A stretch of DNA of 64,000 bases from positions 46,193-110,192 of IMG/VR virus record IMGVR_UViG_2864804954_000001. One strand, 5' to 3'. Shown in pieces: positions 23,670-61,772 of the stretch. The notes beneath the pieces are model-generated. The model saw only the letters and a list, made by a program, of their open reading frames with translations, ran no database searches and had not been told where the DNA came from. The stretch is from a virus. Lineage: Duplodnaviria > Heunggongvirae > Uroviricota > Caudoviricetes. The first letter of the stretch is position 1; every line of letters begins with the position of its first letter. The position numbers and the translations under genes were made by a program.

Positions 23670-23681
23670 TCGTTCGATTAT

Positions 23682-24770: not shown

Positions 24771-24815
24771 GATGAAGTTATTATTTCTTTTATTTTCAAC
24801 AAATTAAGCCAACAC

Positions 24816-26885: not shown

Positions 26886-27487
26886 GTTGCCTCCTGATAC
26901 TGATCGAGCAGATCCTCCGCGTATTCGCTTTCGCCATAGAAAGCCTCTACAGCTTCACAGTAAGTACCTGCGCGATCTTCTTCCTCTGCTTTGATGACGC
27001 TCAAGTATTTGTCTCCACCTTCAAGCGGCTTCATCCAAAGGTAGCTGTGTGCACCAAAGTTCCCTTCAGCTTCTTCAAGGAAGATATGCTTGACGTTGCA
27101 CTGCAGGCGGTTAGCGATCTGCTTTAATAGCTTTTCTCCCGCAGGGCCCCAAGCAGTGCTGAATCGAACCTCAAACATGCCTGAAAGCTCACAGCAATAA
27201 TCTTCCTTGTGACTGGCAAAATCAGATTCATGGGCGTTGTGTGTCGTTCCCCAATTTGTCTCCAACCACTTGCGCTGCATAACTTCAGGCATCACTGGCA
27301 TACGCAAGATGCGATCAAAATCAACACGGCATTCAATAGGCTCTGCAAGGAAGTGATGAGGACCTAAAAAATGCACTAGACGCTTCTTGCGGGTAAACTT
27401 CCGCATAAAAGCCTTTTTGTGCGCAAGAGGAATAATGATTGAGTTTTGGCACCAGTTAGGCATCTTCAAGCTCCTTTTTACAATCAA
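26879..27487 (-). CDS. hypothetical protein (202 aa)
   Basis: ORF, Cys/His-containing. Confidence 0.45.
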   Translation of the reverse strand: MIVKRSLKMPNWCQNSIIIPLAHKKAFMRKFTRKKRLVHFLGPHHFLAEPIECRVDFDRILRMPVMPEVMQRKWLETNWGTTHNAHESDFASHKEDYCCELSGMFEVRFSTAWGPAGEKLLKQIANRLQCNVKHIFLEEAEGNFGAHSYLWMKPLEGGDKYLSVIKAEEEDRAGTYCEAVEAFYGESEYAEDLLDQYQEATC

Positions 27488-27650
27488 TTACCGCCTGCTT
27501 TAAAAGCTCAAGAGAGCAGGGCTCACAAAAGTCCACGCACATTTTTAAAAGCGACATTGCACTTTTGGCTGCAGGCGTTGACATCTTCATCATGTACTGT
27601 GCGACGTCTTTATTAATTCCTGCCGCCTGTTCAATTTGAGATTGATTCAT
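27456..27650 (-). CDS. hypothetical protein (64 aa)
   Basis: Small ORF overlapping its neighbours. Confidence 0.35.
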   Translation of the reverse strand: MNQSQIEQAAGINKDVAQYMMKMSTPAAKSAMSLLKMCVDFCEPCSLELLKQAVIDCKKELEDA

Positions 27651-27883
27651 TCGTCTTCTCCTGCAGTCTTGCTGTAAAACTCCAAAAGCGCACAGTGGTA
27701 CTTTGCTGCCGCCTGTTCATTGACAATGCAATACTCTGAATAAGCATCACACGCGGGTCCACCTTCGTATGAATTTTCCATGTCAACTTTGACGCCTAAA
27801 CTTTCAGGTGTAGGCGCGCCCTTTTCAAGCGCACGTTCGTCAAGTCGAAAGTAGGAAGCGTTTTGCTGAATGTTGATATTCAT
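27647..27883 (-). CDS. hypothetical protein (78 aa)
   Basis: Small ORF in ATGA overlap. Confidence 0.35.
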   Translation of the reverse strand: MNINIQQNASYFRLDERALEKGAPTPESLGVKVDMENSYEGGPACDAYSEYCIVNEQAAAKYHCALLEFYSKTAGEDE

Positions 27884-29214
27884 GCTAATTCCTCCTCATC
27901 TTCTTCGCAGGCGACGTCATAGTGGTACACCGCTTCGATTACTTCGCCTTTGTCGTTGGTGCGGTAATACAGTGGAGCAGAGCCGTCACCGTGCGCTGTG
28001 TGCGAGTTACAGCCATGCTCAAACGTGCCACCTTCTTCTTTTTCAGGATTGTTGGCATTGCGGTATGAATCGCCACCTGATGACAGTGCGCATAGCTCAA
28101 AGTAGGCTTTGCGGTCGTCGCGATCTGTGTCGCCACCGTACTCGTTCTGATACCAACCTTCATCAAAGAAGCCCGCCTGACCTGAATCGACACCCACATC
28201 GAATTTGTTGTTTTCAATCCATACACCCTGATCGAAGGTGGTAAACTCAGGCACAGATTCATGCTTGACGTGCAGGAAGTGTGTGCGCTGTGGTTTACCG
28301 CTGTCAAACAGCTGTTGCGTGTACTCCACCGATTTTTTGAGCGCCTGCACGCAGACTGGATTTGACATGGTGAAATATACTTGGTCATGCGCTTCGTTGG
28401 CCGTACCTTCTGGAACACGCATACGCATTAATGCCATTGTTAGATGATGCCCATCACTCGAACGAGCGCGGTCAAGAATATGCGAGTATTTTTCAACAAG
28501 GACGTAATTGACTAGCTTCTCTAGGCAGTTCTGCGCGTAATCTTCCTCTTTCCACCAACTTCTGTGAGTGTTCAGCGGGGCAAATTTAGGCACTAAGGCT
28601 TCAATGATTGGCATAACTTCGGACGGATACCCGATTGACTTCCACGAAACGTAAATAGAGCGTCCATTCGCCTTCTCATACGCCTTAATTGCGTCGTAAA
28701 TTTGGACGTACTTTGCGTATTCGCCGTATTCAGTCATTGGCTCAAGAATTTCTATGGCCATCTTTTTCACAGCGATTAATTCAAGCAACTCGCCTTCGTC
28801 GTAACGATCACGGAAGAAACCGATTCGCGCTTGGTACTGACCATTGGCAGCAGGCATAGAGCCTTTGCACCACGTATCGTTGCTGTAGCATGGGTCGGTA
28901 AAGCGGATCGCGCCCGACTTAACTGTGAACACACCAAGATCGCGAACAGAACGTGTTGGCGAAGCGGCATTGATGCTCACGTAAGGAATCAACGACATTA
29001 CTTCAGTTACAGTTTGAGTGGCATCATCAAAAACAATCCAACCGTTTGCGAAGATGCCCCATTCAAATTTTTCGTTGGCAAGGTCTTCACCAACTTCGGG
29101 TGGAACAACAGAGAACCCAGTCTCACCGCGAACATATTCGAGAAAGGCGGGTATCGTTTTGTCTTTTTCGTGGCTCTTGCGCAAATCAGCAAGAACGCTT
29201 ACAAACTTCTTCAT
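27880..29214 (-). CDS. large hypothetical protein (444 aa)
   Basis: True start MKKFVSV with RBS AGAGG. The upstream 67 codons of the ORF-track entry translate the promoter/leader (IIIDLSKQ = ATTATCATTGACTTATCGAAACAAG). Confidence 0.5.
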   Translation of the reverse strand: MKKFVSVLADLRKSHEKDKTIPAFLEYVRGETGFSVVPPEVGEDLANEKFEWGIFANGWIVFDDATQTVTEVMSLIPYVSINAASPTRSVRDLGVFTVKSGAIRFTDPCYSNDTWCKGSMPAANGQYQARIGFFRDRYDEGELLELIAVKKMAIEILEPMTEYGEYAKYVQIYDAIKAYEKANGRSIYVSWKSIGYPSEVMPIIEALVPKFAPLNTHRSWWKEEDYAQNCLEKLVNYVLVEKYSHILDRARSSDGHHLTMALMRMRVPEGTANEAHDQVYFTMSNPVCVQALKKSVEYTQQLFDSGKPQRTHFLHVKHESVPEFTTFDQGVWIENNKFDVGVDSGQAGFFDEGWYQNEYGGDTDRDDRKAYFELCALSSGGDSYRNANNPEKEEGGTFEHGCNSHTAHGDGSAPLYYRTNDKGEVIEAVYHYDVACEEDEEELA

Positions 29215-29243
29215 GGGTTTAACCTCTTTGGTCAGTGTGACTT

Positions 29244-29270
29244 GTTTCGATAAGTCAATGATAATGCGTA
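29244..29270 (-). promoter_or_regulatory. early promoter/leader, TCGAAAC flanked by TGACTTA/AAGTCAC half-sites
   Basis: Minus: CATTATCATTGACTTATCGAAACAAGTCACACTG. The leader motif sits inside a palindrome resembling the intergenic palindromic element. Confidence 0.45.
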
Positions 29271-29284
29271 AACTTTGGAAAGGT

Positions 29285-30007
29285 TTAGGCAGATTGAGCT
29301 TCTGCTTTAAGCGCCCTAACATCAGCAGCGGTAAGCGTGGTGACTGGTCTAAACGTGTAATGTGCGTTGTAGATACGGTCGTCACCGATTGGGTCTGAGA
29401 ATACGAAAGTGCCATCTGCTCGTTGCATCATGTTTGCGCCATGCAGATCGACAAATGCGCGGTCGTAATCCTGCATGAACTGCGCAAGTTCATCTAAGGC
29501 GTCGATGATGGTTGGGTTGTCGTGCTGATAGAACGCGTTGTCGCGTAGGTGGTGCGCGATGTCTTTTGCTCTTGAGCGATAGTCAGGAACTTGTGACCGC
29601 TTGTCACCTTCGCGCCAATCTTTTGCAATACGACGAGACAAGGTGGCATTGCGCGTACCTTGAGGAATTTTATGCAATCTCTCAATCTCATAAAGATAGA
29701 TTGGCACTTGCAGCTCGATAGGATTTGTCAGCTTCGTGCGTGTCACGTTTTTTGATGTCGTGAACGTGCCAACGCGACCGAAGTTGCGAATGACATTTGC
29801 GAAGTGATGGCTGTCAGGTCGGTAAAGCGCGTCTGTATGGAACAGATAGCTTGCTTCATCAATGCTTAATTTTAAGACTGTGTTTTCGTTGTCGGATTCA
29901 AAGACGCCTGAATACTGGCCGCTACCGATAAGTTTACGACCTGCGAGGGCAGGATGATTCTTTCTGATCTCTTTAACGAGAGGGTCAGTTAATGTGAAAA
30001 TTTTCAC
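29285..30007 (-). CDS. putative protein kinase-like protein (240 aa)
   Basis: Gly-rich loop LIGSGQYSGVF followed by a VLKL lysine. Later HGANMMQRADGTFVFSDPIGD resembles the catalytic/Mg-binding segment of kinase-fold enzymes. Confidence 0.4.
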   Translation of the reverse strand: MKIFTLTDPLVKEIRKNHPALAGRKLIGSGQYSGVFESDNENTVLKLSIDEASYLFHTDALYRPDSHHFANVIRNFGRVGTFTTSKNVTRTKLTNPIELQVPIYLYEIERLHKIPQGTRNATLSRRIAKDWREGDKRSQVPDYRSRAKDIAHHLRDNAFYQHDNPTIIDALDELAQFMQDYDRAFVDLHGANMMQRADGTFVFSDPIGDDRIYNAHYTFRPVTTLTAADVRALKAEAQSA

Positions 30008-30113
30008 GGTGTACCTTTATTTGCTTTCGTTTCAATTGTGCTATTAAACAATGCGAATTGTGGAAAGTGTTGATTTTGTTGATATTGCCGAGCAGGGCAT
30101 AAAACAACAGGCA

Positions 30114-35991: not shown

Positions 35992-36867
35992 TTAGTAAAA
36001 TTTGGATTCAATTAACTTACGATGCTGTACCCAACCCGAGAAGTTTCCGTGTTGATGCGGGTTGCGGTACTGTTTGCCAGTCATAAGTTTGGTGAACCAA
36101 TTGGCTTGAACGTCAGGTGTTGCCTGATGCTCAAATGGCGATGCGTGCAACGGGCGCGCACCTACGAGTTGCTCGCAGAGAGCCAAGTCTTTTTGTACGT
36201 CTGGCGCTTGACCGTCATGGCGCAAGTAGGACACACGACAACAACGAGCTGCCGACACCTGCAACAAAAGGTCGGTTGGATAGAGTTCACGTTCTTCATC
36301 CGTAATGTATGGAAGATGCCATTCACCAGGCTGCAGGAGCAACGGTAGGCTGTGGTCCATACATTCGCGCATCGCAATGGCTAATTCGCGAATTTCAGGC
36401 TGTGCATCTTCGTGATCGCGCAATTCAAACCAGTTGCCGTATTCAGTGGCAGTCAACACCACCGAGATATATTGAAATGGTTCAAGAATGCGGTTAGCGA
36501 CTTGCTTGTGCAGGCCAATTCCTACCATCTGCTCCGCAATGTCTGCTGCCATATCTGCTGCAAGTTTCCACTGCTCGATTGCTTCGTCACGTAAGGTTGG
36601 CTCAAGCTCAACTTTGGCTTGCATACCTGATTGGTTTTTACCCCAATGACAAGGCATAGCAGGCTCGTTGCGTACTTGCTCCAACATGCGAACCACTGGA
36701 ATTGCGCGAGAGGATGAAGCGTTGCGGCTAAATACACGGTGCGTCATCAACTCACTGTGAATGAAGCGCGGATAACGCAGTTGGAACGTGGTAATGCGCT
36801 GACCTGATGGACTGATCGAGTCTGCAAGAATAGTTGCTTCAACTTTAAACGTCATGATTATTCCCAC
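35992..36867 (-). CDS. thyX: flavin-dependent thymidylate synthase ThyX (291 aa)
   Basis: ThyX motif RHRVFSRNASSSRAIP and second RHxxxS-type repeat. Confidence 0.75.
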   Translation of the reverse strand: MGIIMTFKVEATILADSISPSGQRITTFQLRYPRFIHSELMTHRVFSRNASSSRAIPVVRMLEQVRNEPAMPCHWGKNQSGMQAKVELEPTLRDEAIEQWKLAADMAADIAEQMVGIGLHKQVANRILEPFQYISVVLTATEYGNWFELRDHEDAQPEIRELAIAMRECMDHSLPLLLQPGEWHLPYITDEERELYPTDLLLQVSAARCCRVSYLRHDGQAPDVQKDLALCEQLVGARPLHASPFEHQATPDVQANWFTKLMTGKQYRNPHQHGNFSGWVQHRKLIESKFY

Positions 36868-37874
36868 TCCAACGCGCCAGTTTGGTACGCGTCCACTTTT
36901 GTTTCAAAGAAGTTCTTTTCCACACCGTTAGGCGCAGAGAAGCGCTCAACCCACTCGTAAGGGTTGGTGACGTTGCCGTAAGGCAAGAATGGCGCGTCGA
37001 TGTAATCGGCACGTTTGTTGCCCAATGTTTTGATGTAGTTTTCAAGCATGTCGTCGGTAGCACCAAAGACACCGCCACTGAAAATGTATTTCGCCCATGA
37101 AACTTCCAACTGAACTGATTCATGGAAGATTTGATAAGCGTCACGCCAAAACGCATCGTCGAACACTTCAGGATTTTCAATACGCATGGTGTTAAGCATG
37201 TGCATGAATAGAGTTAAGTGGTTTTGCTCCTCATCACGCTGGATGAAGCGAATCATGTCGGCAGAACCGAGCATCTTTCCTTGACGCGCCAATAGGTAGA
37301 ACACCAAGAAGCCCGAGAAGAAGTACACGCCTTCAAGTAGAATGTTTGACACCAATGCCAACGCGAAGCCACGCGCCGTAAATTCTTCAGCACCAAGCAC
37401 CTTGGATTGTTCAAGAATGAACTCATTCTTTTTCGCCAAAATCCCGTCACGCTCGAAGGTCATGTAAATGCTCATCGGGTCAAGGGAGATGGCTTCAATC
37501 ATTTGCGAGTAAGAGTCAACGTGTAACGCTTCCTCGAATGCTTGACGCGACAGACACATTTCAACTTCTGGAGAAGTGACATGCGCTGCAATATTCATGT
37601 TGATGTTGTGAAATTGGATACCATCCAAGTTCGACAAGAAAGCGAGAGCTTTGTCGTAGGCATTGCGCTCTGCTTCTGTGAGATTTTCGCGATAGCAGAT
37701 TACATCGTCCGCTAAGTTGACCTCGCCAGGCGTCCAAGTGTTTGCAAGCATCAGCTTCCAAACGTCACGCGCCCACTTGTGTTTCATAGGCGAGATCGCC
37801 ATGAGGTCATCGCGTGGGCCAAGGATTAAACGTCGGTCGTTTACTCGCTTGGCATAATTAGTTTGTTTGTCCAT
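36858..37874 (-). CDS. nrdB: ribonucleotide reductase small subunit NrdB (338 aa)
   Basis: Di-iron ligand helices (EALHVDSY, EEQNHLTLF, LLEGVYFFSGF). Start set at MDKQTNY with RBS AAAGGA. The ORF-track extension to 37949 crosses a terminator hairpin. Confidence 0.75.
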   Translation of the reverse strand: MDKQTNYAKRVNDRRLILGPRDDLMAISPMKHKWARDVWKLMLANTWTPGEVNLADDVICYRENLTEAERNAYDKALAFLSNLDGIQFHNINMNIAAHVTSPEVEMCLSRQAFEEALHVDSYSQMIEAISLDPMSIYMTFERDGILAKKNEFILEQSKVLGAEEFTARGFALALVSNILLEGVYFFSGFLVFYLLARQGKMLGSADMIRFIQRDEEQNHLTLFMHMLNTMRIENPEVFDDAFWRDAYQIFHESVQLEVSWAKYIFSGGVFGATDDMLENYIKTLGNKRADYIDAPFLPYGNVTNPYEWVERFSAPNGVEKNFFETKVDAYQTGALEWE

Positions 37875-37894
37875 AAAATCCTTTTCCTTAGAAC

Positions 37895-37932
37895 AATAAA
37901 AAAGTGGTGGAGCGTTCGTTCTCCCCACCACT
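37895..37932 (-). terminator. strong hairpin plus U6 in the nrdB leader (terminator/attenuator)
   Basis: Minus: GUGGUGGGG-agaacgaacg-CUCCACCAC then UUUUUUAUU, 20 nt upstream of the nrdB ATG. Confidence 0.55.
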
Positions 37933-37952
37933 TCCTCGTTCTCTCTCACAGT

Positions 37953-44103: not shown

Positions 44104-44562
44104 TTAAGTCCAGTCAAAACCTTGTGGTGGTTTGGTGACTGGCGTTGCTGTGAGCGGCTCAGGCTCGGATTTAGGTTCAGAAGTGAATGTCTTTGCATAG
44201 TCTGAAACTTCCCCTGTTGTGAAGAAGTCTTCCTTGCGGTAGTGGCCAACAAATTCGCCCAGCTTATCCAAGAGGTCACGCGTAGAGGGTTCGCTGCGCG
44301 CTCCGCCTGCTACATGCTTCATGTGACGCGCACGTAAAGATGAAAGGTCAATACCAGTGCCGCCTGGCGTAGATGCTGCAATCAGTCTTTCTTTGGCAAT
44401 CTTGCTCACATAATCTTGCGCCCACTTGTGCGATGCCTCATCGGCAAGTTGCGCTCTGAGCATTTCTTCCGCGCTAAATGCAGGAAACTTAACTTCGTAA
44501 GTAGGCTTTTTGCCGCTGTTAAACCAGTCAGTTAAAGCTTTGCTATCAATCGCCATCACCAA
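44104..44562 (-). CDS. hypothetical protein (152 aa)
   Basis: ORF in ATGA-type overlap. Ends ...PPQGFDWT. Confidence 0.45.
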   Translation of the reverse strand: MVMAIDSKALTDWFNSGKKPTYEVKFPAFSAEEMLRAQLADEASHKWAQDYVSKIAKERLIAASTPGGTGIDLSSLRARHMKHVAGGARSEPSTRDLLDKLGEFVGHYRKEDFFTTGEVSDYAKTFTSEPKSEPEPLTATPVTKPPQGFDWT

Positions 44563-45380
44563 GCCACCTGTCCGTATCGTTCCGAGATCATTTCTGGCGA
44601 CTGCTGATTTAAGAGAATTTCGAGTGAATCTTCAATGTCGGCTTTTTCTTTGGCTGCTGCCAGTGCAAGCTCTACCTCGCGCTTCTGTTTGGCAATGAGT
44701 TCGCGCTCTCTTTGTAGTTCCATTTCTTTTTGTGCGTCTTTGGCTTTCTTGCGCATACGTTCCTCTCTTTCTTCGCTTTCCTTTCTCATTCGTTCTGCTT
44801 CGGACAATCCATTCACACGGATAGTGCCCCTCTGTTCACGCTTAGGGGTTGATGATGCAATTGAGATTCGCTTTTCGGAGATGCATGACTCCGCTGTGAT
44901 CATTCCAAAATGATCTACTGCACTTGAAACGTAACCCCTGTTGACTGATTCCACTTCAACATCAAGGTTGATGTAGAGTTCATTTTGGCGTTCTAGCTTT
45001 TCTGCATTTTCTACGAACTCCTCACGCGCTTGATCGCAACCGCCACGATTACAGCGGAGCGAAATGCCGAATTTATGCTTACGGTTAAGGTTGTCTTGAT
45101 AGCTGCTTGATTCACACATGCGGTTGGAACAGCCAATGCACGTCGTAGGAAAGCCGCCGCTCATGTGCAACTGCTTTCCAATTTCGTGCTTGAAGACATC
45201 TCCAATGGTCTGCATGGTTTGGTCATACATACGAGAAACGCTGATGTTACGCGAATCAAGGTAATGTTTTGCATCCATTGGGTCGATGAGCATCACCGCC
45301 TGGATCAAATCGCCATTCAAAAATCTGACAGTGTTAAGTTGGGATTCTGCGGGTGAAAAACCAGTCACTTTATTGTCCAT
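44556..45380 (-). CDS. hypothetical protein (274 aa) with C-terminal ...ERYGQVAW
   Basis: Cys cluster CIGCSNRMCESS...CNRGGCDQ, charged coiled-coil, then the shared C-terminal tail. Confidence 0.45.
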   Translation of the reverse strand: MDNKVTGFSPAESQLNTVRFLNGDLIQAVMLIDPMDAKHYLDSRNISVSRMYDQTMQTIGDVFKHEIGKQLHMSGGFPTTCIGCSNRMCESSSYQDNLNRKHKFGISLRCNRGGCDQAREEFVENAEKLERQNELYINLDVEVESVNRGYVSSAVDHFGMITAESCISEKRISIASSTPKREQRGTIRVNGLSEAERMRKESEEREERMRKKAKDAQKEMELQRERELIAKQKREVELALAAAKEKADIEDSLEILLNQQSPEMISERYGQVAW

Positions 45381-46222: not shown

Positions 46223-46795
46223 TTACCAAGAACCTTCCTGAGTGTAGGCTTTGCTGTCACCTGTGCGCTTGATCTGACGTTGGCGGTCGCGCTCTGCGTA
46301 TTCGCGTTGCAGATTCACCACGTTGTTGTTAATGTCATCCATTGCGGTAAGGAAATACTTGGTCAGCACCGCTTTAAATTCGCTGCCGAACATATCAACC
46401 GCCTTGTCGAATGGAACAATCAAGTAACCGACATCACGGACGATCGCGGTAGGCTTAAATAGAATATTCACCATCGACTTTGAGCGTTGTACGTCCGACA
46501 GCTCGAAGCCGTAAAAGTTAAACACTTCACCCGCAAGAAAGTGTCTGGCACTTGGTACTCCGTTGCCGTTAAGTTGCACTACCTGATTGCCTGATTCAAG
46601 CAAGGTGAAGATCGGCAAGACGTTTGGGTCTCGAAGTTTGTTCTTCAGCACCTCATCGTTGAGTTCATCAATGGCGCAGGCCATTAAATCCTCATAACGC
46701 TCCCGAAATTCGGCACGATCAGCATCAGCTTCCTTTTCGTCTTGCTCTGCTTCGTTGACAACCTCTGCCAACAGTTCGAGTTCAAGTTCATTCAT
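46223..46795 (-). CDS. hypothetical acidic protein (190 aa)
   Basis: ORF with no recognisable motif. Confidence 0.45.
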   Translation of the reverse strand: MNELELELLAEVVNEAEQDEKEADADRAEFRERYEDLMACAIDELNDEVLKNKLRDPNVLPIFTLLESGNQVVQLNGNGVPSARHFLAGEVFNFYGFELSDVQRSKSMVNILFKPTAIVRDVGYLIVPFDKAVDMFGSEFKAVLTKYFLTAMDDINNNVVNLQREYAERDRQRQIKRTGDSKAYTQEGSW

Positions 46796-50185: not shown

Positions 50186-50210
50186 GTTAAGTCACCCATA
50201 ACTTACTTAT
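50186..50210. promoter_or_regulatory. palindromic element PAL upstream of sbcD-like gene
   Basis: GTTAAGTCACCCATAACTTACTTAT followed (minus sense) by TATAAT-ACGCTCGAAACGCAC. Confidence 0.45.
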
Positions 50211-50620
50211 TCTGGGTAGTTTTTAGGTTTGTAGTACACATGCCCACCGACACGACCAAGTGATGTAAAATCATGTCGCCATTTCGGACGTGTGGATGGG
50301 GTGTGGAAGTTGCTCACATTGCGGTACTTCGTAGGTACATCAAGTGAGCCGCCCAGTGCCTTGCGAGCGATCATTTGGCATTCCTCCCACGTGTCTTGTT
50401 CTTGCGGTTTTCCTGCAGGACGTAATGTTCTGCCGACAACTAAGTGCTTTGTCCAACTGAACTGCGAGGGTCTCATAACTTCGGCACAGACATTGCTATT
50501 GTTGTCTCTTGCGCGGTTAATGGTTGTTTGTGCAATGATTTTTTTGCCTAGCTCTGGTTCACCACGTCCTTCATGGTAAATGTTCAAAGCTAGGCAGGTC
50601 AGCGCGGTTGAAAGTATCAT
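50207..50620 (-). CDS. SleB/CwlJ-type cell-wall hydrolase, putative endolysin (137 aa)
   Basis: ALNIYHEGRGEP...TINRAR...CAEVMRPSQFSW matches the Hydrolase_2 family. Start set at MILSTAL. Confidence 0.5.
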   Translation of the reverse strand: MILSTALTCLALNIYHEGRGEPELGKKIIAQTTINRARDNNSNVCAEVMRPSQFSWTKHLVVGRTLRPAGKPQEQDTWEECQMIARKALGGSLDVPTKYRNVSNFHTPSTRPKWRHDFTSLGRVGGHVYYKPKNYPE

Positions 50621-50621
50621 T

Positions 50622-50828
50622 TTAGGGTCTAACTCCTCGTTGAATCTTTCGCACAGCGTTGTGCCAATTCCTCGCTGCGTGACTGCATGACGGAGAGCCT
50701 GGGACGGGTAATGTGTACCCATTTGGTGACTTTAGAACGACATGGTTGCCACCTCGACGGTAGGACCAGCCATTTTTGATGAGGGATTGCGCTGTGCTTT
50801 GGATTGATTTGTCGTTTGATAATCGCAT
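50622..50828 (-). CDS. HicA/YcfA-like small protein (68 aa)
   Basis: LIKNGWSYRRGGNHVVLKSPNGYTLPVPG matches the HicA G(S/G)(S/N)H...P.G...VP pattern. Confidence 0.35.
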   Translation of the reverse strand: MRLSNDKSIQSTAQSLIKNGWSYRRGGNHVVLKSPNGYTLPVPGSPSCSHAARNWHNAVRKIQRGVRP

Positions 50829-50885
50829 TACATATTCTCCATATCGGTGAAAAATGAGCTTTATAGCTCTGTAATGCGATTATAT

Positions 50886-50914: not shown

Positions 50915-51301
50915 TTAACGAATTTCGAGGGCAGTTTCTAGGGCTTCGGCTGTATGTGAGGAATTGGCAACGAACAGATTGCGGTTCAAACGACGCATCG
51001 GCTCTTTGCCGGACACGTAATGAACCTCAGAAGGGGCGTTAAGGAAGTCCTGCATATTGGCGATATATGTGGTCTTTTTCTTGCCAATCTTATGCAGCAC
51101 GCCAATCTGTGTGCATCCTGCCGCTTCTGCTTGGCGAATGGTTGCTGTCGGCAATGTCCAAGCGTTGTGCTTGTGATCGAGAGCGCGTGTCTTTTCGCCA
51201 CCGATATGTTCAAGGTAAAGCTTGCGGCCATCCCCAAAGTCGTAATAGCGACCCTTGAATTTGCCGTTTACCGTTCTGTCTGTGCGTTTAATCACTACCA
51301 T
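50915..51301 (-). CDS. hypothetical protein (128 aa)
   Basis: ORF. First gene of the cluster after the palindromic element at 50886-50913. Confidence 0.45.
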   Translation of the reverse strand: MVVIKRTDRTVNGKFKGRYYDFGDGRKLYLEHIGGEKTRALDHKHNAWTLPTATIRQAEAAGCTQIGVLHKIGKKKTTYIANMQDFLNAPSEVHYVSGKEPMRRLNRNLFVANSSHTAEALETALEIR

Positions 51302-51711
51302 GCTCCAAATGCTTTGTTGTTTCTCATTTTGTTGACCGTTCCAAGATCAACCTGAACTGTCATTAATCCTCTAGTGAACTGTGCGACAAGCTGTGGTGAA
51401 GGCTGATAGGTGAGAAATAGCTCCTCGACCTGTTCGGCAATTGCTACAAATGACGTCTCAAAGGTGCAGCTTTCGGTATGCTCAATCAAACCCCAACCTT
51501 GTTTCTTTAGGCTGTTCACTTTCATCATGGCAGCGTAATGCAGCGAGCCATTAATGAGCGATTGTGAGTTGTTGATCGCCAAGCTGCTGACAATGCAAAA
51601 CCAAGACGAGTTGCTGTGGATGTTGTAGACCAATACAACGATGCACCCGACATCATTCTTAGACAGCTTCCACACATAAAGTCTCAAGTCTGAATCTGGA
51701 ATCACGACCAT
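51295..51711 (-). CDS. tandem-array protein 1 with C-terminal ...NKAFGAW (138 aa)
   Basis: Shares the C-terminal tail and the conserved junction TTTGGAGCATGGTCATGA with its neighbours. Confidence 0.5.
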   Translation of the reverse strand: MVVIPDSDLRLYVWKLSKNDVGCIVVLVYNIHSNSSWFCIVSSLAINNSQSLINGSLHYAAMMKVNSLKKQGWGLIEHTESCTFETSFVAIAEQVEELFLTYQPSPQLVAQFTRGLMTVQVDLGTVNKMRNNKAFGAW

Positions 51712-52166
51712 GCTCCAAACGCTTTGTAGTTCTTCACGCCTAAGACAACTGGGTCGAACGGCATTTCCATGAGTTTGAAATACTCAATGATCGTAAACTC
51801 GTCCATGATTGCCTTTAGGTGCGTAAACAATTGGGTCTGATCGACAACGGTGTTGAAGTCATACGCTGTGCGGACATCATCCTGTGCGCCAGGGTGAAGA
51901 ACAATCTCCCATCCGTAGCGACCATGCTGCCGTTTGTACTGCTCAAACTCCCGATAAACCAAACCTTCGCCCGACTTAACGAGCTTCGGTGGCTCTTGTC
52001 TGTCTTTTGGTTGATCCAGTCTGACGATGATGCTGAACGGATTTCTTTTGTGGGATTGGTTGGCAACAATACAGATTAACTGCATCTGTTCTTCATCGTT
52101 GGAGGTACTTTTGAAGGTTGCTGTTGCCATTGTCAGAACGCGAAAGTTATCATCACTCATGACCAT
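51702..52166 (-). CDS. tandem-array protein 2 with C-terminal ...NYKAFGAWS (154 aa)
   Basis: Same tail and junction. Confidence 0.5.
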   Translation of the reverse strand: MVMSDDNFRVLTMATATFKSTSNDEEQMQLICIVANQSHKRNPFSIIVRLDQPKDRQEPPKLVKSGEGLVYREFEQYKRQHGRYGWEIVLHPGAQDDVRTAYDFNTVVDQTQLFTHLKAIMDEFTIIEYFKLMEMPFDPVVLGVKNYKAFGAWS

Positions 52167-52588
52167 GCTCCAAAATTACCGTATCGCTCGCTTGGATCTT
52201 CCTTTAGATCAAGTTCCTGTGAACCTGTAACAGCCTGAACAAGTGTATGAATGACAATCTCGTCATTCGTGCCAATACGGATGAGGTCAATCAAAGCGTC
52301 CAAGCCTTTTTGTTTGCTGACGTCTTGGTTGTACGTGCTATTGCGGTAAATCGAATCGTAGCCGCTATCTCTGATCGCCTCACAGAAGTCTTCAAGACCT
52401 TCAAGGCTTGGGCTTTCATAAGTGACGTGGCTTTTCAGATTAATCTTTTCGATCTCTTTGCCGTTGTCTCGCAAGGCGAATACCTGACGACGTTTAATCT
52501 CAGGCGTATTAATAACGAGGATGCTGATGCGGTCGTCCAGTGTTTTGTTTTTGTATTCACTGATGAATCCCGATACGATCATGACCAT
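52157..52588 (-). CDS. tandem-array protein 3 with C-terminal ...RYGNFGAWS (143 aa)
   Basis: Same tail and junction. Confidence 0.5.
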   Translation of the reverse strand: MVMIVSGFISEYKNKTLDDRISILVINTPEIKRRQVFALRDNGKEIEKINLKSHVTYESPSLEGLEDFCEAIRDSGYDSIYRNSTYNQDVSKQKGLDALIDLIRIGTNDEIVIHTLVQAVTGSQELDLKEDPSERYGNFGAWS

Positions 52589-53037
52589 GCTCCAAAGTTA
52601 GCGTAAGTTTCTTGTTCCAGTGTCAACTTTGCCTCGCGCACTTCTTCTGCCATAGCGATAGACTTGTTGATGTTTTCAATAAACAGGCGAAGTTGATCTT
52701 CTTTGTAAATTGCGGAACGAATATGGTTAGCAATGTCGAGATTGGCTTCATCTGTACCGTCGCAGTCGATAGTGACTTCTACTAAAGGGTCTCCTGTAGT
52801 TACCCAGCCCTTTTTTGCATAGTCATCCCAAAGCTCGTTGTGCTTTTCGGCCGAGTCACTCAGGCTCTCAAACGTATGGATTTTGGCTACTTCAGCACCA
52901 AAACATTCAGCCATCAAAAAGATGCCAAGCACCTGATTGTCGAAGCAGACAAGGTGTCTTGCAGGAACGGTCGATTCAAGAATGAACTCGGACACAATTA
53001 CGTCAAAATGATGTCGTTTCATTACCAAGCCGCCCAT
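52579..53037 (-). CDS. tandem-array protein 4 with C-terminal ...TYANFGAWS (152 aa)
   Basis: Same tail and junction. Confidence 0.5.
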   Translation of the reverse strand: MGGLVMKRHHFDVIVSEFILESTVPARHLVCFDNQVLGIFLMAECFGAEVAKIHTFESLSDSAEKHNELWDDYAKKGWVTTGDPLVEVTIDCDGTDEANLDIANHIRSAIYKEDQLRLFIENINKSIAMAEEVREAKLTLEQETYANFGAWS

Positions 53038-53525
53038 GTGTCTTTGTAGCGTAATTCGCGTTCTTTGGCTGCCAACTCAGCTTGTATGCGTTCGAGTTCT
53101 TCGCGTTGTCGTCTTTCTGTTTCGCGCTGTATCAGTATTGCGGTTCTAGCTTCTTCTTTCGCTTTCTGCTCTGCTTTGTATTGTTCAAGCTGTCTTTGCT
53201 TTTCAGCTTTCTTTTCTAGCTCTCGCAGCTTCTCAGCTTTCATTTCAGCGAGCCAAAGACTGTACTCAGCTTTCGTGAAGCGTGTCTTGTAGGTTGCGTT
53301 GTAACGCTCATTCTTGCGGAGAAAACTATCGAGGACGTGGTGCAGACTTGCACTCATTCGCGTGTGCTTGGAGCGCGGTACTTTTGGGTCTGTACCGCGT
53401 AGGTCAAGAAAGTATTCGATGGCAGTTAGATTGCCTTTTTTGATTAAGTCTATTGGCTTAAAGCCTGCGTACACGCCAGAAGCCAAAGGTTCATCTATTT
53501 CTATGAATGATGATCTTGAACTCAC
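53022..53525 (-). CDS. coiled-coil protein with C-terminal ...RYKDTWAAW (167 aa)
   Basis: Long charged helix (KAEKLRELEKKAEKQRQLEQYKAEQKAKEE) then the AW tail. Confidence 0.45.
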   Translation of the reverse strand: MSSRSSFIEIDEPLASGVYAGFKPIDLIKKGNLTAIEYFLDLRGTDPKVPRSKHTRMSASLHHVLDSFLRKNERYNATYKTRFTKAEYSLWLAEMKAEKLRELEKKAEKQRQLEQYKAEQKAKEEARTAILIQRETERRQREELERIQAELAAKERELRYKDTWAAW

Positions 53526-53875
53526 TCAATCCTCCTCAAGTAAACCACACATGCTTTCTTGCTGTGGTTTACGATATGTGGACCAAGAAACTTGGTCATA
53601 AGTTTGTAAATACGGCTAGCTGAATTACCATCTGCTCGACCAATTTCCGAGTGATTATTCGCGGCATGGTACAAACAGATTTGACCGAACGTGTCCTGTT
53701 CGACGCTGATAACTTCTGCTTTTGCGAAAATCATTTTATCTTTTGAGTTTTGGAGATAGACGTGATCGCCACACTGGAGCAACTTTGTCCACTTAACACC
53801 CATGCGAATCGTATTAAATTCGCCATCGAAACCTTCAAGCGGTGGCACGAAGTCCAACACATAACCTTGAATCAT
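53522..53875 (-). CDS. hypothetical protein, possible ASCH/PUA-like fold (117 aa)
   Basis: ORF in ATGA overlap. Beta-rich small domain. Weak call. Confidence 0.35.
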   Translation of the reverse strand: MIQGYVLDFVPPLEGFDGEFNTIRMGVKWTKLLQCGDHVYLQNSKDKMIFAKAEVISVEQDTFGQICLYHAANNHSEIGRADGNSASRIYKLMTKFLGPHIVNHSKKACVVYLRRIE

Positions 53876-53882
53876 AAGAAAG

Positions 53883-53921
53883 CCCTAAACTAAAACTTGC
53901 ATTCTAGTTTAGGGCGGTTCC
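53883..53921 (-). terminator. intrinsic terminator after recA-like gene
   Basis: 11-bp perfect stem GCCCTAAACTA-...-TAGTTTAGGGC followed by TTTCTT on the minus strand. Confidence 0.55.
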
Positions 53922-53940: not shown

Positions 53941-55023
53941 TTATGCAGCTTCTTCCTCTACTGCCTTTTCTTCACTTGGTAAGAATGCCTTCAATTGCTC
54001 TAAGCCATCCTCTTGCTCGTTCAAATGCTTCGCAAGCGCCTTCTCGTAATACTTCTTGCCGTCTGTCCACGTCACGTAAGGTTTGCTGTAGTTCACCCAA
54101 CCTTTCTTGATGGCCAAGTTGAGTGTCGATGCGACATGGTCGAAGTTGGCACAGCCGATCTCGTCGTACATCAGGCGAAGGTCACACTCTTGGAACGGTC
54201 GAGTGAGTTTGTTCTTCACGGTCTGCACTGTGATGTTTTGACCGACGAACTCTTTCTCTCCATCAGCACCTTTGTCCATGATCTTTTGACGGCCAAGCGC
54301 AAGACGAACCGAAGCGTAAAACTCCATCGCTTTACCTCCTGGGGTAGTTCGAGGATCACCAAAAGCAACGCCCGGCTTTAAGCGCATTTGGTTCAAGTAC
54401 CAAAAGGTTGCGTTTAATTCTTCGGCTTTGGCTGCAACAACTTTTAACGTCGTTGATGTCACACGTGCTAAGGCTGTCGTGTCGTTCATCGTGTACGTGT
54501 CCATTTCGCGCTCATTGCCTTTTGAATCATGCAGCATTGATTCAGGTACGGCAGACGCAATTGAATCGCCCACAACAAGAATAGGTGCATCATCAGGGAT
54601 TGCTTTTGAGCGACGGATAATCTGACATGCTCGAATGGCAGTTGCGTTACCTTCCTCCCAAGTTTTCGGTTTGATGTAAATCCAGTAAGGACGCTGCGTG
54701 TTCAAGCCAAAACCTTCTGCAAGGTTGACATCAAATGAACGCTCCCAATCAATGAAGATGGCAACGCCACCCATCTTTTGAGTTTGCACCATACACTTTG
54801 TTGCAATGGCGGTTTTACCTGTAGAGGACTCGCCGAAGGTTTCAAGCAAGCGACCGACTGGAACGCCGCCGTCGTAGCTACCTGAAATGATGCGGTTAAG
54901 TTCAGGATTACCTGTATCAATCCATTGTGTAACAGACTGCTGATCGTCGTTCTCGCCAATGCCTTTGTCGAGTGCGAGTGCCAACATTTCGAGTTTTGGG
55001 TCTAGTGGGATTGTTGTAGCCAT
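53941..55023 (-). CDS. RecA/UvsX-like recombinase (360 aa)
   Basis: Walker A GESSTGKT in a RecA-core context (LNRIISGSYDGGVPVGRLLETFGESSTGKTAIA). Walker B IFIDWE. Confidence 0.75.
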   Translation of the reverse strand: MATTIPLDPKLEMLALALDKGIGENDDQQSVTQWIDTGNPELNRIISGSYDGGVPVGRLLETFGESSTGKTAIATKCMVQTQKMGGVAIFIDWERSFDVNLAEGFGLNTQRPYWIYIKPKTWEEGNATAIRACQIIRRSKAIPDDAPILVVGDSIASAVPESMLHDSKGNEREMDTYTMNDTTALARVTSTTLKVVAAKAEELNATFWYLNQMRLKPGVAFGDPRTTPGGKAMEFYASVRLALGRQKIMDKGADGEKEFVGQNITVQTVKNKLTRPFQECDLRLMYDEIGCANFDHVASTLNLAIKKGWVNYSKPYVTWTDGKKYYEKALAKHLNEQEDGLEQLKAFLPSEEKAVEEEAA

Positions 55024-58325: not shown

Positions 58326-61300
58326 CTATTCGAGAATTTCTGCGACCTTCTCGAAAGTTTGGACAAGACCAGTCATCTTCGACGGGTCGAAGTGGACTTG
58401 TTGTGGATTTAAGCCGCACACAATCGTTGCGTCGAGCTTAGGGTCATAGAAGGACTTACCAATCAGGTCAGCGGTGCTACCTTTGGTGCCTGGTAAGAAG
58501 TGTTTGATCGCTGCTGAACCGAGCGCAACGATAATGCTAGGCTTGATCAGTTCAACTTCTTCACTAATGAATTTCTTGCAGCCGTTAAGCTGTTCATTGC
58601 TCAAGAACTTATCTTGCTTTTTGGCTTTGACTAGCGTCGTGTAATAACCTTCATTCGCTGATAGGTCTGCTTCCTTGATTGCGTTCTTCACGTACTTAGA
58701 GGCGTCACCTTCCATCAAGCGACCTTTCTTTTCTTCCTCCCAAGTAGGGCAGTCCGTAACAACCATGAACTTGACTGTTTTGCCACAGCGCACAGTCGGA
58801 TGCGGTTGACCTTTCAGTGAGCAGCCATCGCACTTCAAGAAGTCTTGAGATAGTGAGATCAGGCGCGAACGCAAGTGTCCTTCAGTTAGATCGGTGGTGC
58901 GATCAGCCTTGACCGTGTCGATGATAAGTCCTGGCATCAACTCGATTTGGTCTTTACGTCTGTCCATGTGATTTGCAGGCAGTTCGTCACTGTCAATACT
59001 GGCGAATGCACCGACCTTGCGTAAGGCTTCGATGACCGCTGCATTGACACCTGAACCTTTAAATCCTGCTGCTTCGACCACTTCTTGAATTGAATCAAAT
59101 TTGCCTTTGACTGGACTTTCAATGTCGTAACCGTAGACAGGCGTTTTCTCTGCATTGCGCTTGTATCGGACGATGGTGATGTCTCGATGCTTCTGTCGCA
59201 TGGCAACAATCTTACGCGCTGTCGTTTCAGATACGCCTTTGACTGCACTGAATGGCGACAGAATGGTGCTGTTGTTTGGAATGGTGAACTTATCACTCGA
59301 CACGTTGATGTCAGGCGGTAACACTTCAATGCCGTACTCTCGCGCATCACGCACAAGTCCAGTGAGTTTGTCTTCACCTACGACCGACAATGAGGCAGCA
59401 AAGTATTCGGCAGGGTAGTGGACACGAATGTAGGCGCACCATACTGAGATAATCGAATACTCGACAGAGTGGCTTTTGTTGAAACCGTAACCTGCGAACG
59501 CTTCAATTTTATGGAAGATTCGACCTGCTTCGGCTGCCGCCACACCTGACTTTGTCATTGCGCCGTTTACGAATTTCTCAGCAAGTGCCGCCATCTTGGT
59601 CGCATCTTTTTTACCCATCGCTTTACGCAAGCCATCTGCTTCTGCGTTGGTGAAGCCTGCAAAGTCAACTGCGACCTTCATTACCTGTTCCTGATAGATA
59701 ATGACGCCTAGCGTGTCCTTGAGTGCGTCGGTCATGTTTGGATGATCGTACTCGACCGCCTTCAGACCTTGACGCACAGCAACGTAATCATCCATCAGAC
59801 CTGAGTCCATTGGGCCAGGGCGATACAGGGCGGTTGCTGCTGCAATATCATCAAAGGTCATTGCGCCACCCTTTGCGATGTTCTTAAGCAAGGCACGCAT
59901 ACCGTTCGATTCAAACTGGAACACGCCTGTCGTGTCACCTCTTGCGAAGGCATTCATCGTCTTAGGGTCATCAAGTGGAATCTTGAGTAGATCGAGTTCT
60001 ACGCCATGACGTTCTTTAATGTACCGCTGCGCAATGTGCAACGTGTCTAAGGTGGACAGACCGAGTAAGTCCATCTTGACCAAGCCCCACAGTTCTACAC
60101 AGCGTTTGTCCCAATTGACCACTGGAGCTTCACCACGCGTTTCGAGTACCGCACGGTTTGCAATCGGTTCGCCTGCAACGATAATCCCTGCTGCGTGTTG
60201 TCCGAATGACTTCATCGTGCCTTCGAGTTTGACGGCATGACTCCAAATTGCAGGATGGTCGAGTTTGAATTTCTCAAGCTCAGGCACAGCACTTGCTGAT
60301 TCTTCAAGTCCTACGGTTTGACCATGATCTTTCAGCACGTACTTGGTGGCGGTCAATTCAAGCGGTGATAGACCGCTAATACGCCCTGCATCGCGCAAAG
60401 CTGACGCCGACGCAAGTGTTGAGTAGTTACTGATGCCTGCGACGTGATCTGCGCCATATTTGTCAACAAGATAGTTCACCACTTTGTAACGTGCCGACGA
60501 TGCAAAGTCCAAGTCGGCATCGGGCAAGTCGAGACGTTCAGGGTTAATGAAACGCTCAAAGATTAGACCGAAACGAATTGGATCTACTTCTGTGATGCCA
60601 AGTAAATACGCGACAAGCGAACCACCAACTGAACCACGACCAGGACCCACAATCACACCGTTGTCTTTCGCCCATGCGACCAAGTCTTCAACAAGTAAGA
60701 AGTATGATTCAAAGCCCATGTTCTTGAGGACGTTGAGTTCATAGCGTAGACGGTCACGATAGACGCCTGATAGCTCTGCTGCTGAAGGCTTATGGCCAAG
60801 AACTTCAACCGAGAAGCGTTTCTTCCAACCTTCGGCACATAGGCCGCACAGGAGCTTGAACTCGTCATCGCCAAACTTAGGCAATGAAACGTCGCGCTTG
60901 TCAAAGGTATATTTCGCCTTGTCTGAAATTTCACCTAAATAGCCTAAGCCTGCTGTCCATACCGAAATGTCGCGCACACCGTTGTATTTTGCTTGGCGGT
61001 ACGCTGCTTGTTTAACACGTTCGAGGATGTCTTTTGGCTCAAAGAACGCAAAGTCCTTCACATGCTGCTTTGGTCGCCATGATTCTGACATCTGCGTATT
61101 CGTTGCAATGGCACTCATGAGGTCAAGTGTGCTTGCGTCCGCATTGTCAGCGTAGCAGAAAGGGTAGGTAACGATCGGCGCTGCGCTGAATGTGTTGATG
61201 AACTCAATTGCCTTGCTGTTCATGCGGTCAAACAATGGCGTATCGACAGGGGAGAGTTCAACATAGAAGTCGTCGCCAAAATGTCGCTGCAATTCACTTG

Positions 61301-61772
61301 CAATGGCAGTTGCATTCGGATGACTGAACAGACCGAACATATCGCCAGTCGTCACAACAACATCCTCAAGCTCTAACAGACTTTTAAGGTCAGTACGGCT
61401 GTGGTAGTAATACTGCTCTTTGGTGTTTGCTGCGGTCAGTAGTTTGAACAGGCTTTTCAGGCCAGCTTCCGACTTCACATACACTTTCGGTTGAAACATT
61501 GGATTCGCTTTTGGTGCGATACCTGATGATTTTGATGGCACGCGGTACGTTGCATCATCATACACACGAAGGCGACAACCGATGACCGGCTGAATACCTT
61601 TCGCTTTGCACTTATCTGAAAACTCCACAAGCGCGTGAACGCTCATGTCGTCAACAAGCGCGACAGACGCATAGCCTAGCTCTGCTGCTTTGTCTGCTAT
61701 CTGTCCGATCTGCAGTAGTGAACTACCAATCGAGAAGTGACTCTGGACTGATAGTGCGTGATTAATTTGCAT
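58326..61772 (-). CDS. dnaE: DNA polymerase III alpha subunit DnaE (1148 aa)
   Basis: PHP domain at the N-terminus (SVHALVEFS, histidine clusters), polymerase core (GPGRGSVGGSLVAYLLGIT, FDIDF-like acidic pair), OB/tau-binding C-terminus. Full length. Confidence 0.9.
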   Translation of the reverse strand: MQINHALSVQSHFSIGSSLLQIGQIADKAAELGYASVALVDDMSVHALVEFSDKCKAKGIQPVIGCRLRVYDDATYRVPSKSSGIAPKANPMFQPKVYVKSEAGLKSLFKLLTAANTKEQYYYHSRTDLKSLLELEDVVVTTGDMFGLFSHPNATAIASELQRHFGDDFYVELSPVDTPLFDRMNSKAIEFINTFSAAPIVTYPFCYADNADASTLDLMSAIATNTQMSESWRPKQHVKDFAFFEPKDILERVKQAAYRQAKYNGVRDISVWTAGLGYLGEISDKAKYTFDKRDVSLPKFGDDEFKLLCGLCAEGWKKRFSVEVLGHKPSAAELSGVYRDRLRYELNVLKNMGFESYFLLVEDLVAWAKDNGVIVGPGRGSVGGSLVAYLLGITEVDPIRFGLIFERFINPERLDLPDADLDFASSARYKVVNYLVDKYGADHVAGISNYSTLASASALRDAGRISGLSPLELTATKYVLKDHGQTVGLEESASAVPELEKFKLDHPAIWSHAVKLEGTMKSFGQHAAGIIVAGEPIANRAVLETRGEAPVVNWDKRCVELWGLVKMDLLGLSTLDTLHIAQRYIKERHGVELDLLKIPLDDPKTMNAFARGDTTGVFQFESNGMRALLKNIAKGGAMTFDDIAAATALYRPGPMDSGLMDDYVAVRQGLKAVEYDHPNMTDALKDTLGVIIYQEQVMKVAVDFAGFTNAEADGLRKAMGKKDATKMAALAEKFVNGAMTKSGVAAAEAGRIFHKIEAFAGYGFNKSHSVEYSIISVWCAYIRVHYPAEYFAASLSVVGEDKLTGLVRDAREYGIEVLPPDINVSSDKFTIPNNSTILSPFSAVKGVSETTARKIVAMRQKHRDITIVRYKRNAEKTPVYGYDIESPVKGKFDSIQEVVEAAGFKGSGVNAAVIEALRKVGAFASIDSDELPANHMDRRKDQIELMPGLIIDTVKADRTTDLTEGHLRSRLISLSQDFLKCDGCSLKGQPHPTVRCGKTVKFMVVTDCPTWEEEKKGRLMEGDASKYVKNAIKEADLSANEGYYTTLVKAKKQDKFLSNEQLNGCKKFISEEVELIKPSIIVALGSAAIKHFLPGTKGSTADLIGKSFYDPKLDATIVCGLNPQQVHFDPSKMTGLVQTFEKVAEILE

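Follow-up and report, generated by a model that had tools for sequence, protein, structure and literature searches.

Why should four neighbouring phage genes with dissimilar products end in almost the same codons, and why should each of these endings run straight into the start of the next gene? This question is raised by a locus in a stretch of 64,000 nucleotides from a tailed phage (Caudoviricetes; IMG/VR record IMGVR_UViG_2864804954_000001, positions 46,193 to 110,192), which we call the window and in whose numbering positions are given unless another genome is named. The genes concerned, g1 to g4, lie in tandem on the minus strand, as do all genes of the locus. An earlier note, made from the letters of the window, had taken them for a tandemly amplified cassette with enforced translational coupling, typical of anti-defence or host-takeover arrays. 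We consider it fairly probable that the array is a string of accessory genes which carry a common C-terminal tag and are connected by a triple-coded junction.

The four minus-strand open reading frames (ORFs; 138-154 aa) that the note reported within 51295-53037 are all present. When up to 3 mismatches were allowed, TTTGGAGCATGGTCATGA had 4 matches in the window against 0.12 expected, and none of 100 shuffled sequences reached four. An identical 18-nt string had been described at each boundary; it does recur at four of them, but only two copies are exact and the others differ by 1-2 mismatches (Table 1). The F-G-A-W-S ending that had been noticed is also there, but the conserved stretch is longer, since the junctions encode the peptide Y-x-[NA]-F-G-A-W-(S). 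Two junction subtypes can be distinguished, one shared by g1/g2 and g2/g3 (27 nt, 93%) and the other by g3/g4 and g4/g5 (37 nt, 86%). Besides, the run of four genes is in fact a run of five consecutive tail-bearing genes, because the upstream gene gA ends in ..YKDTWAAW and joins g1 via TGGGCGGCTTGGTAATGA. In J1-J4 a GGAG stands 7 nt 5' of the second ATG or GTG (the one in the ATGA/GTGA overlap) and 1 nt 5' of the first ATG, while J0 has no clear Shine-Dalgarno (SD) sequence. The second start is also the choice of most gene calls on public contigs, with products of 147, 141, 152 and 136 aa that begin with MKRHH, MIVSG, MSDDN and VIPDS. The GGAG spacing and the majority of gene calls therefore make the MVM/MVV N-terminus of the note doubtful, though some calls do use the first ATG (P0008, 138 aa; L020), and the g5 homologue of the Acinetobacter baumannii plasmid XL380 starts with MVIER.

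The tail occurs far outside the array. Within the window, Trp is found in the last two residues of 13 of 96 genes against 2.1 expected (p=2e-7), and the Trp counts by position from the C-terminal end are 7, 6, 2, 1, 0 and so on. These W-tails share the pattern Y-G-x-Phi-x-A-W or F-G-A-W-S. Pseudomonas phage nickie (L017/L008, MG018927.1) has Trp in the last two residues of 13 of its 152 genes (p=1.5e-4) and contains at least 10 tail genes, among them CNR34_00074-75, 00106-108, 00113 and 00123-124, with two consecutive runs (00074-75 and 00106-108). Its tails (..DFGGWA, ..DIGGWA, ..DFGGWS, ..GAGSWA, ..AFGTWA, ..MGGWA, ..NFGSWA) follow Phi-G-[GST]-W-[AS], and the junction of consecutive tail genes is TGGGCATGA; nickie 00124 ends in ..EGFGAFA, with Phe where the others have Trp. 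Stenotrophomonas phage BUCTxx99 (L028, OR529408.1) carries ten consecutive small genes on its minus strand (26983-30074; 64-138 aa, annotated as hypothetical), nine of which end in ..Y-G-x-W and the last in ..YDSIW, with overlaps of TGGTAATG or TGGTGATG. This run is a larger version of the g1-g4 array. At least 12 tail genes exist in BUCTxx99, two of them dispersed, and 10 of the 90 genes in its first 50 kb bear a W-tail (p=4e-4; 2 probable chance ORFs included). XL380 is also enriched in W-tails. Among 35 tail proteins no similarity of the bodies was found, and in many of them the motif is preceded by a Pro-rich or acidic linker. Examples of tail peptides are EQETYANFGAWS and PENYGDW. The note had treated the junction as peculiar to an amplified unit, which does not hold, as the same tail sits on many dissimilar proteins in the window and in three other phage or phage-plasmid genomes. 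This spread beyond the array suggests that the tail is a clade-wide C-terminal tag.

Such a spread also bears on the descent of g1-g4. That they are tandem duplicates of one cassette, which expanded like an accordion, diverged in an arms race with constant ends and serve as anti-defence or host-takeover genes, is unlikely in our judgement, although several observations would fit. The four products are similar in size (136-152 aa), the junction subtypes pair the neighbours g1/g2 and g3/g4, evolution is rapid and copy number variable, and the genes form an island within a conserved module, like accessory hotspots. In a MAFFT alignment of g1-g4 the invariant Gly of a mid-protein K-x-x-G-[WY] motif is aligned in all four, and hhalign of g3 with g4, tails included, gave a 107-column local alignment (probability 33%). 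However, the homology of the bodies that an amplified cassette should leave was not found. In blastp among g1-g4 the alignment is confined to the last ~10 aa. With the tails removed, no pair beats shuffled controls, either by Smith-Waterman alignment (z<1.3 for all pairs) or by hhalign with 6-9 alleles per family against column shuffles (z<=1.4). What is more, tail and junction are shared by 35 mutually dissimilar proteins in three phages, and a shared end on dissimilar proteins is therefore no proof of common descent of the bodies. Recent amplification of g1-g4 is excluded, while ancient common descent is possible.

Structure and family searches were consulted for the same genes. An AlphaFold2 model of g1 (pLDDT, the per-residue model confidence, 67) shows four strands followed by one helix, then a pair of strands and a pair of helices, with a disordered tail (pLDDT <50) at the end, and the poor model of g3 (pLDDT 47) has the same order of elements, which gives a weak hint that g1-g4 may share a WGR-like fold; the WGR domain itself (PF05406), an antiparallel sheet plus a helix known from PARP1-3 and from bacterial or phage proteins, had no Pfam match at E<=1 in g1-g4, and no WGR chain appeared in the PDB profile searches. 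g1-g4 had no match in Pfam (E<=1), PHROG, NCBIfam or PADLOC, and gA is likewise without a significant family. An anti-defence role is disfavoured by the lack of a match to any defence or anti-defence family in PADLOC, Pfam, PHROGs and NCBIfam, a dedicated anti-defence library not having been searched. The proteins of g1-g4 could be anti-defence proteins, modulators of the replisome or of recombination, or WGR-like DNA-end binders.

For the tail itself, a docking or targeting role seems most likely by analogy with docking peptides of other proteins. One candidate partner is a DnaB-family helicase or another replisome hub, which the W-tail would recruit or bind, so that the array proteins would be helicase or replisome modulators; we hold this to be improbable. 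It was suggested by a scan for N-Y-G-D-W-stop-ATG, which found, on prophage-like viral contigs of 38-41% G+C, an O-like replication initiator (phrog_270/678, 297 aa); it ends in ..QQQTPADMKNADLNYGDW (..ADLNYGDW), and its gene is in direct coupling with that of a DnaB-like helicase. Initiators such as those of the lambda O/P and P22 gp18/gp12 pairs must recruit the helicase, the acidic linker and terminal aromatic residue of the W-tail resemble the C-terminal tip of SSB (SSB-Ct) and the tails of T7 gp2.5 and gp4, and the tail genes sit among replication and recombination genes. But the scan yielded one family at about the chance rate (~6 random matches expected by a rough estimate, 4 singletons and this family seen), and the other proteins of that prophage lack the tail; the single family at such a rate makes the helicase lead weak. 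The O-like initiator occurs in L035 (10092-12310) and ~30 other IMG/VR prophage contigs with TAATG coupling, and its tail matches the BUCTxx99 array.

NrdA, into which the NrdB tail docks as a classic case of such a peptide, was also considered as the common reader, as the NrdB proteins of three genomes have a similar W-tail (Y..G-A-L-x-W); it was down-weighted, since BUCTxx99, with the largest array, has an NrdB without a W-tail (..NYLNSLPK). The C-termini of the other NrdB proteins are ..YQTGALEWE in the window (36858-37949), ..YEDKGLEW in nickie (73846-74862) and ..YKAGGALTW in XL380 (9-998).

To see which property of the junction is under selection, the alleles are informative (6-9 per gene). 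At Y (TAC/TAT), N (AAC/AAT) and F (TTT/TTC) they differ in codon but agree in residue, and in gA the W-A-A-W is kept although its Ala codons vary (GCG/GCA, GCT/GCA); such synonymous changes at fixed residues argue for selection on the peptide. The nucleotides have a layer of their own. GGA accounts for 11% of the Gly codons of this phage, yet it is used in 4 of 4 junctions (p=1.5e-4) and in all allelic tails, and this invariant use of a rare codon argues for selection on nucleotides. Given the amino acids and the codon usage of the phage, finding TTT-GGA-GCA in all four junctions has p ~1e-7. Gly is followed here by A, V or E, and in relatives by G, D, V or S. Most of these have codons with an initial G, and hence GGA-Gnn spells GGAG. 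The junction is a triple code of tail, GGAG SD and stop/start overlap. The tails of nickie and BUCTxx99 show free variation in their Gly and Tyr codons, and several of them are followed by TAA and intergenic DNA, which indicates that the peptide is selected in its own right.

These data also make it distinctly improbable that the junction is a pure translation signal, that is, an SD-spacer-ATGA reinitiation cassette copied between boundaries, with the tail as a mere read-out of the upstream frame. The constant choice of the rare GGA, the bias of the following residue to G-starting codons and the enrichment of W-tails at coupled junctions are what it would predict. It does not explain why Y, N and F outside the SD vary synonymously with the residues kept, why Gly is written GGT, GGC or GGG (no SD) in nickie and BUCTxx99, or why tails stand before intergenic DNA (window 23290, 46223 and 44104; nickie 00108; BUCTxx99 16140 and 26983). 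A spacer is not known to need TGG, and the window contains 19 coupled junctions without a W-tail besides 4 tails that are uncoupled.

Comparison with relatives, which the note had proposed as a check, showed that the array does vary in copy number, with 4, 3, 2 or 0 cassettes between constant flanks. Most relatives have all four cassettes, and at least 8 contigs with the full set were found. In L010, g1 is missing and gA is fused to the start of g2 by the hybrid junction GCAGCATGGCAATGATCG, a variant found on 2 contigs. In L011, a variant known from a single 1,982-bp contig, g3 and g4 are missing and the g2 tail abuts g5 with the junction GGAGTATGGTCATGATTGAACGC, exactly where identity to other genomes resumes. 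In XL380, gA, which ends in ..YGDVLGSW, is directly joined to g5. The breakpoints of the 3- and 2-cassette variants fall exactly in the junction. Assembly collapse as the source of these deletion variants was rejected by inference, as most of the repeats (18-37 nt) fall below the k-mer length, which we take to be k=31 for the Logan assemblies; the hybrid junction of L010, which has a substitution of its own, and the finding of this variant on two contigs also speak against it.

Divergence within the array is mosaic. Nucleotide identity between the window and L014 is 98% for g2, 83% for g3 and 99.8% for g4. Two hypervariable patches, at 52160-51900 (N-terminal half of g3) and 53215-52700 (C-terminal half of gA and g1), hold most of the differences between genomes which are otherwise ~98.5% identical over 19 kb. 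The claim that the bodies diversify while the junctions stay constant was borne out, as alleles of g1 go down to 40% and those of g2 to 51% amino acid identity with the tail retained. For g2, 3 public contigs encode an identical protein, and the tail is still there in homologues with 89% and 51% identity.

That the junction is a dedicated cassette-exchange site (cf. integron attC, lambdoid linker or boundary sequences, T4-type promoter-stem-loop (PeSL) elements), held constant through selection for shuffling, is very improbable: the exact junction-to-junction indels in L010, L011 and XL380, the cassette-wise mosaic identity between the window and L014 and the divergent g3 patch that begins at the g2/g3 junction would agree with it, but the neighbours include no integrase, the genes have no space, promoter or stem-loop between them, and the repeats found at the junctions are direct ones of 27-37 nt, with neither an attC-like imperfect palindrome nor any other inverted repeat, while other breakpoints lie inside genes or span junctions, no relative has a new cassette type, the same tail occurs on dispersed single genes, and recombination at repeats of 18-37 nt is expected passively.

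We therefore return to the string of tagged accessory genes. The locus may be regarded as a variable accessory island between RecA/ASCH and g5/SbcCD in a replication-recombination module, in which gA and g1-g4 would be read as one translationally coupled chain of five small genes. Three overlapping codes would keep the junction conserved, namely the tag end Y-x-N-F-G-A-W-S in a disordered tail, the GGAG, and the ATGA/TAATG overlap, with the GGAG built from the Gly codon GGA and a next codon beginning with G, 7 nt before the next start. The tag would be a clade-wide C-terminal short linear motif (SLiM), roughly (P)-x-[ED]-[ND]-[FY]-G-x-W-(x)-COOH, on dissimilar small non-structural proteins, and it most likely docks or targets its carriers to one common reader. 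Crossover points would arise at the gene-spaced direct repeats as a by-product, and whole cassettes could be lost or gained in frame. The repeats passively give crossover points for the loss or gain of cassettes, as seen in the variants described above.

Several points weigh against this explanation. The searches found no reader of the tail and no database or literature match to the motif, so the docking role is argued by analogy. One hypervariable patch spans gA/g1 and the other ends in the middle of g3, which places the recombination breakpoints only partly at junctions. Finally, in the window W-tails go together with coupled junctions more often than expected by chance (10/14 vs 19/79, p=0.001), and part of the pattern could therefore be driven by nucleotides.

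The coordinates of the array, its edges and the other tail genes of the window are collected in Table 1. The substitution ratios (nonsynonymous to synonymous, dN/dS) are medians over 6-10 alleles per gene from related contigs, and values of 0.17-0.52 indicate that gA and g1-g4 are real proteins, which evolve faster than the flanking g5 (0.10).

Table 1. Junctions, genes and edges of the array, and other W-tail genes of the window (C-terminal sequences run up to the stop codon)
Feature	Position	Strand	Description
J0 (gA/g1)	53019-53036	-	TGGGCGGCTTGGTAATGA = W-A-A-W-stop, TAATG stop/start overlap; weaker version of the repeat, without GGAG
J1 (g1/g2)	52579-52596	-	TTTGGAGCATGGTCATGA, exact copy
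J2 (g2/g3)	52157-52174	-	TTTGGAGCATGGTCATGA, exact copy
J3 (g3/g4)	51702-51719	-	TTTGGAGCATGGTCGTGA, 1 mismatch (GTG for ATG); GTG start overlaps TGA stop
J4 (g4/g5)	51292-51309	-	TTTGGAGCATGGTAGTGA, 2 mismatches (TAG stop, GTG start)
Hairpin	53882-53915	-	15-bp stem, then T-run; between RecA and ASCH-like gene; upstream edge of block
ASCH-like gene	53522-53875	-	phrog_3705, E 8e-44; first of the overlapping chain; GTGA overlap into gA; homologue in nickie
gA	53022-53525	-	167 aa; N-terminal domain and long charged coiled coil; ends ..YKDTWAAW; dN/dS 0.52
g1	52579-53022	-	147 aa from second ATG (152 aa from 53037); ends ..ETYANFGAWS; dN/dS 0.22
g2	52157-52582	-	141 aa; ends ..SERYGNFGAWS; dN/dS 0.24
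g3	51702-52160	-	152 aa; ends ..KNYKAFGAWS; dN/dS 0.28; absent in L011
g4	51295-51705	-	136 aa from GTG (138 aa from ATG); ends ..RNNKAFGAW; dN/dS 0.17; absent in L011
g5	50915-51295	-	126 aa; phrog_9044, E 8e-15; no W-tail; constant downstream flank; dN/dS 0.10
Inverted repeat	50819-50883	.	perfect, 14 nt; in gap after g5; downstream edge of block
W-tail protein	46223-46795	-	190 aa, ends ..YTQEGSW; directly after SbcC, uncoupled downstream; positional counterpart of nickie CNR34_00074 (..DFGGWA)
W-tail protein	44556-45380	-	274 aa, ends ..SERYGQVAW; SERYG also in g2
W-tail gene	44104-44562	-	~150 aa, ends ..PPQGFDWT
W-tail gene	25429-25806	-	ends ..ERGFPKW; cluster 23290-25806, PHROGs of unknown function
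W-tail gene	25004-25435	-	ends ..SQDYGFTAW; cluster 23290-25806
W-tail gene	23290-23625	-	ends ..SQDYGQIAW; then intergenic SD and hairpin, uncoupled; cluster 23290-25806
W-tail gene	19816-20178	-	120 aa, ends ..TAYGWS

From the ASCH-like gene through g5, seven genes overlap by ATGA, GTGA or TAATG at 6 of 6 boundaries. Promoter-like sites in this block are not in excess (4 vs 5.2 expected from shuffles), and strong hairpins are restricted to its edges. The enforced coupling claimed earlier stands as a matter of architecture, namely a co-directional, tightly overlapping chain with an SD at the correct spacing and an ATGA overlap, from which we infer that the g1-g4 chain is translationally coupled. 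The gap 3' of g5 measures ~190-295 nt, depending on which start is chosen for the following hydrolase gene. gA is found in every relative, with a positional homologue in XL380 (26% identity, E 1e-4), and g5 also in all of them, XL380 included (36% identity).

Searches for more distant relatives of the array returned little. Neither megablast nor tblastn of the region, g1-g4 and g5 gave a real match in GenBank phages; a match of g1 to an endolysin in the same set (E 5e-3) was judged spurious. P0012, a 1495-aa repeat protein from the representative search, was rejected as a low-complexity artefact. The exact 18-mer had 3 single matches in IMG/VR, on contigs of 55-57% G+C, which is chance level and without arrays, and a search of IMG/VR for related loci with RecA, the ASCH-like protein and g5 gave no useful relative. 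Profile searches of the PDB and the search of Rfam gave nothing, nor did the scan of JGI metagenomes, and the scan of GTDB genomes gave only a distant Chitinophagaceae metagenome-assembled genome.

As to the host, the window has an identical counterpart in a Logan contig of 110,906 bp, and a homologue of g3 is annotated on a 110-kb contig of an Acinetobacter tibetensis assembly. XL380 is a distant phage-plasmid relative (L029/L030, NZ_CP046537.1, A. baumannii XL380 'plasmid unnamed'; circular, 112,007 bp). It encodes terminase, portal, major capsid protein, ParB, DnaE, RecA, SbcCD, UmuDC, an AraC regulator and formaldehyde-detoxification genes, and has no g1-g4 cassettes. With these relatives in A. 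tibetensis and XL380, the element is taken as an Acinetobacter phage or phage-plasmid of ~111 kb. The A. tibetensis contig (L013; GCA_047918715.1, JBLROI010000011.1, 110 kb) has its position 1 inside g1, which may mean either that a circular or permuted molecule was opened at an arbitrary point or that the assembly broke off at the variable region.

RecA of the window is ~45% identical to the RecA proteins of nickie and BUCTxx99. The gene order is DnaE, gp32-like, flap endonuclease (FEN), RecA, hairpin, ASCH-like gene, gA, g1-g4, g5, the gap with the inverted repeat, cell-wall hydrolase, SbcD and SbcC. The island is absent from nickie and BUCTxx99, where only one or two small genes separate RecA from SbcD, and the array is therefore an island within a conserved replication-recombination module. 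The cell-wall hydrolase (PF07486, SleB-like; 50207-50722) stands between g5 and SbcD, far from any lysis cassette. RecA contains an intein in two relatives (L015 151-1725, 524 aa, PF14890; L029 4548-6755, 735 aa), and that of the window (53941-55023) is uninterrupted by one. The DnaE-type polymerase (58326-61772, 1148 aa) matches the uracil-DNA-glycosylase family PF03167 besides PHP, Pol3-alpha and HHH.

The array can be compared with several known systems. The T4-type internal proteins (IPI-III, from the polymorphic internal protein (IP) locus) share a capsid targeting sequence (CTS), and IPI* acts in anti-restriction. Like that locus, the array is a run of small, fast-evolving, dissimilar genes with one short terminal peptide, whose conserved stretch offers homology for shuffling. 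The T4 tag, however, is N-terminal and cut by the prohead protease, while the W-tail is C-terminal with no protease site or virion link known; the array also differs in lying in the replication/recombination module. A test of g1-g4 for a T4-type CTS found no shared N-terminal peptide, the conserved peptide being C-terminal.

A second group of docking tails comprises E. coli SSB-Ct (DDDIPF), the T7 gp2.5 and gp4 tails that end in Phe, and the NrdB C-terminal peptide. The W-tail is likened to them by sequence and setting, being disordered, with acidic or Asn residues, a terminal aromatic residue and genes of DNA metabolism around it. Several proteins dock into one pocket through the SSB, T7 and NrdB tails. 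The W-tail differs from them in its consensus [FY]-G-x-W and in having far more carriers, many of them tiny ORFans. As for the junction, ATGA or TAATG overlaps with an internal SD are common in phage operons, and the same stop/start overlap, with an SD inside the upstream coding sequence at a spacing of 5-9 nt, is found here. Unlike in those operons, a stretch of 18-37 nt is repeated from one boundary to the next and also encodes a selected peptide.

In McdB an invariant C-terminal Trp is a shell-docking motif (PMC11321042). Like McdB and the cargo-loading peptides of encapsulins, the W-tail is a short peptide at the C-terminus of unrelated proteins, set off by a flexible linker that is Pro-rich or charged, and a terminal Trp can be the residue on which docking depends; the sequence of the W-tail differs from theirs, and no shell or compartment partner is known for it. 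Gene accordions, such as the amplification of T4 tifA via short homologies (10.1101/2022.04.14.488369), resemble the array in the small accessory genes and in a copy number that varies by short-repeat recombination, but their copies are near-identical, whereas the bodies of g1-g4 have no detectable similarity. Precedents thus exist for a shared terminal tag, for coupling overlaps and for short-repeat recombination. Their combination, the W-tail motif itself and its breadth over three host genera appear to be new, and the literature searched describes neither this motif nor arrays of its kind in phages like Nickievirus.

In conclusion, for the clade of ~110-kb phages and phage-plasmids of Acinetobacter, Pseudomonas and Stenotrophomonas we tentatively suggest, as a possibility short of an even chance, that the W-tail is an address label by which dozens of small accessory proteins, unrelated to one another, reach one and the same reader; candidates for it are a replisome or helicase hub, a protease and the capsid. 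Because the nucleotides of such a label double as ribosome-binding site and start of the gene that follows, genes which bear it could be strung together, exchanged and deleted as in-frame modules, and the four-gene array would be one such string if the label is real. Small early phage genes are mostly ORFans that offer no starting point for study. A selectable tag common to dozens of them makes them directly accessible to experiment: pull-down with the peptide should recover a single reader and show how accessory proteins are organised, timed or delivered. That one short stretch of DNA can encode a peptide, bind the ribosome and supply homology for recombination provides a concrete way in which phage accessory genes may be gained and lost as modules. 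In other genomes, such gene sets can be sought simply by means of the motif.

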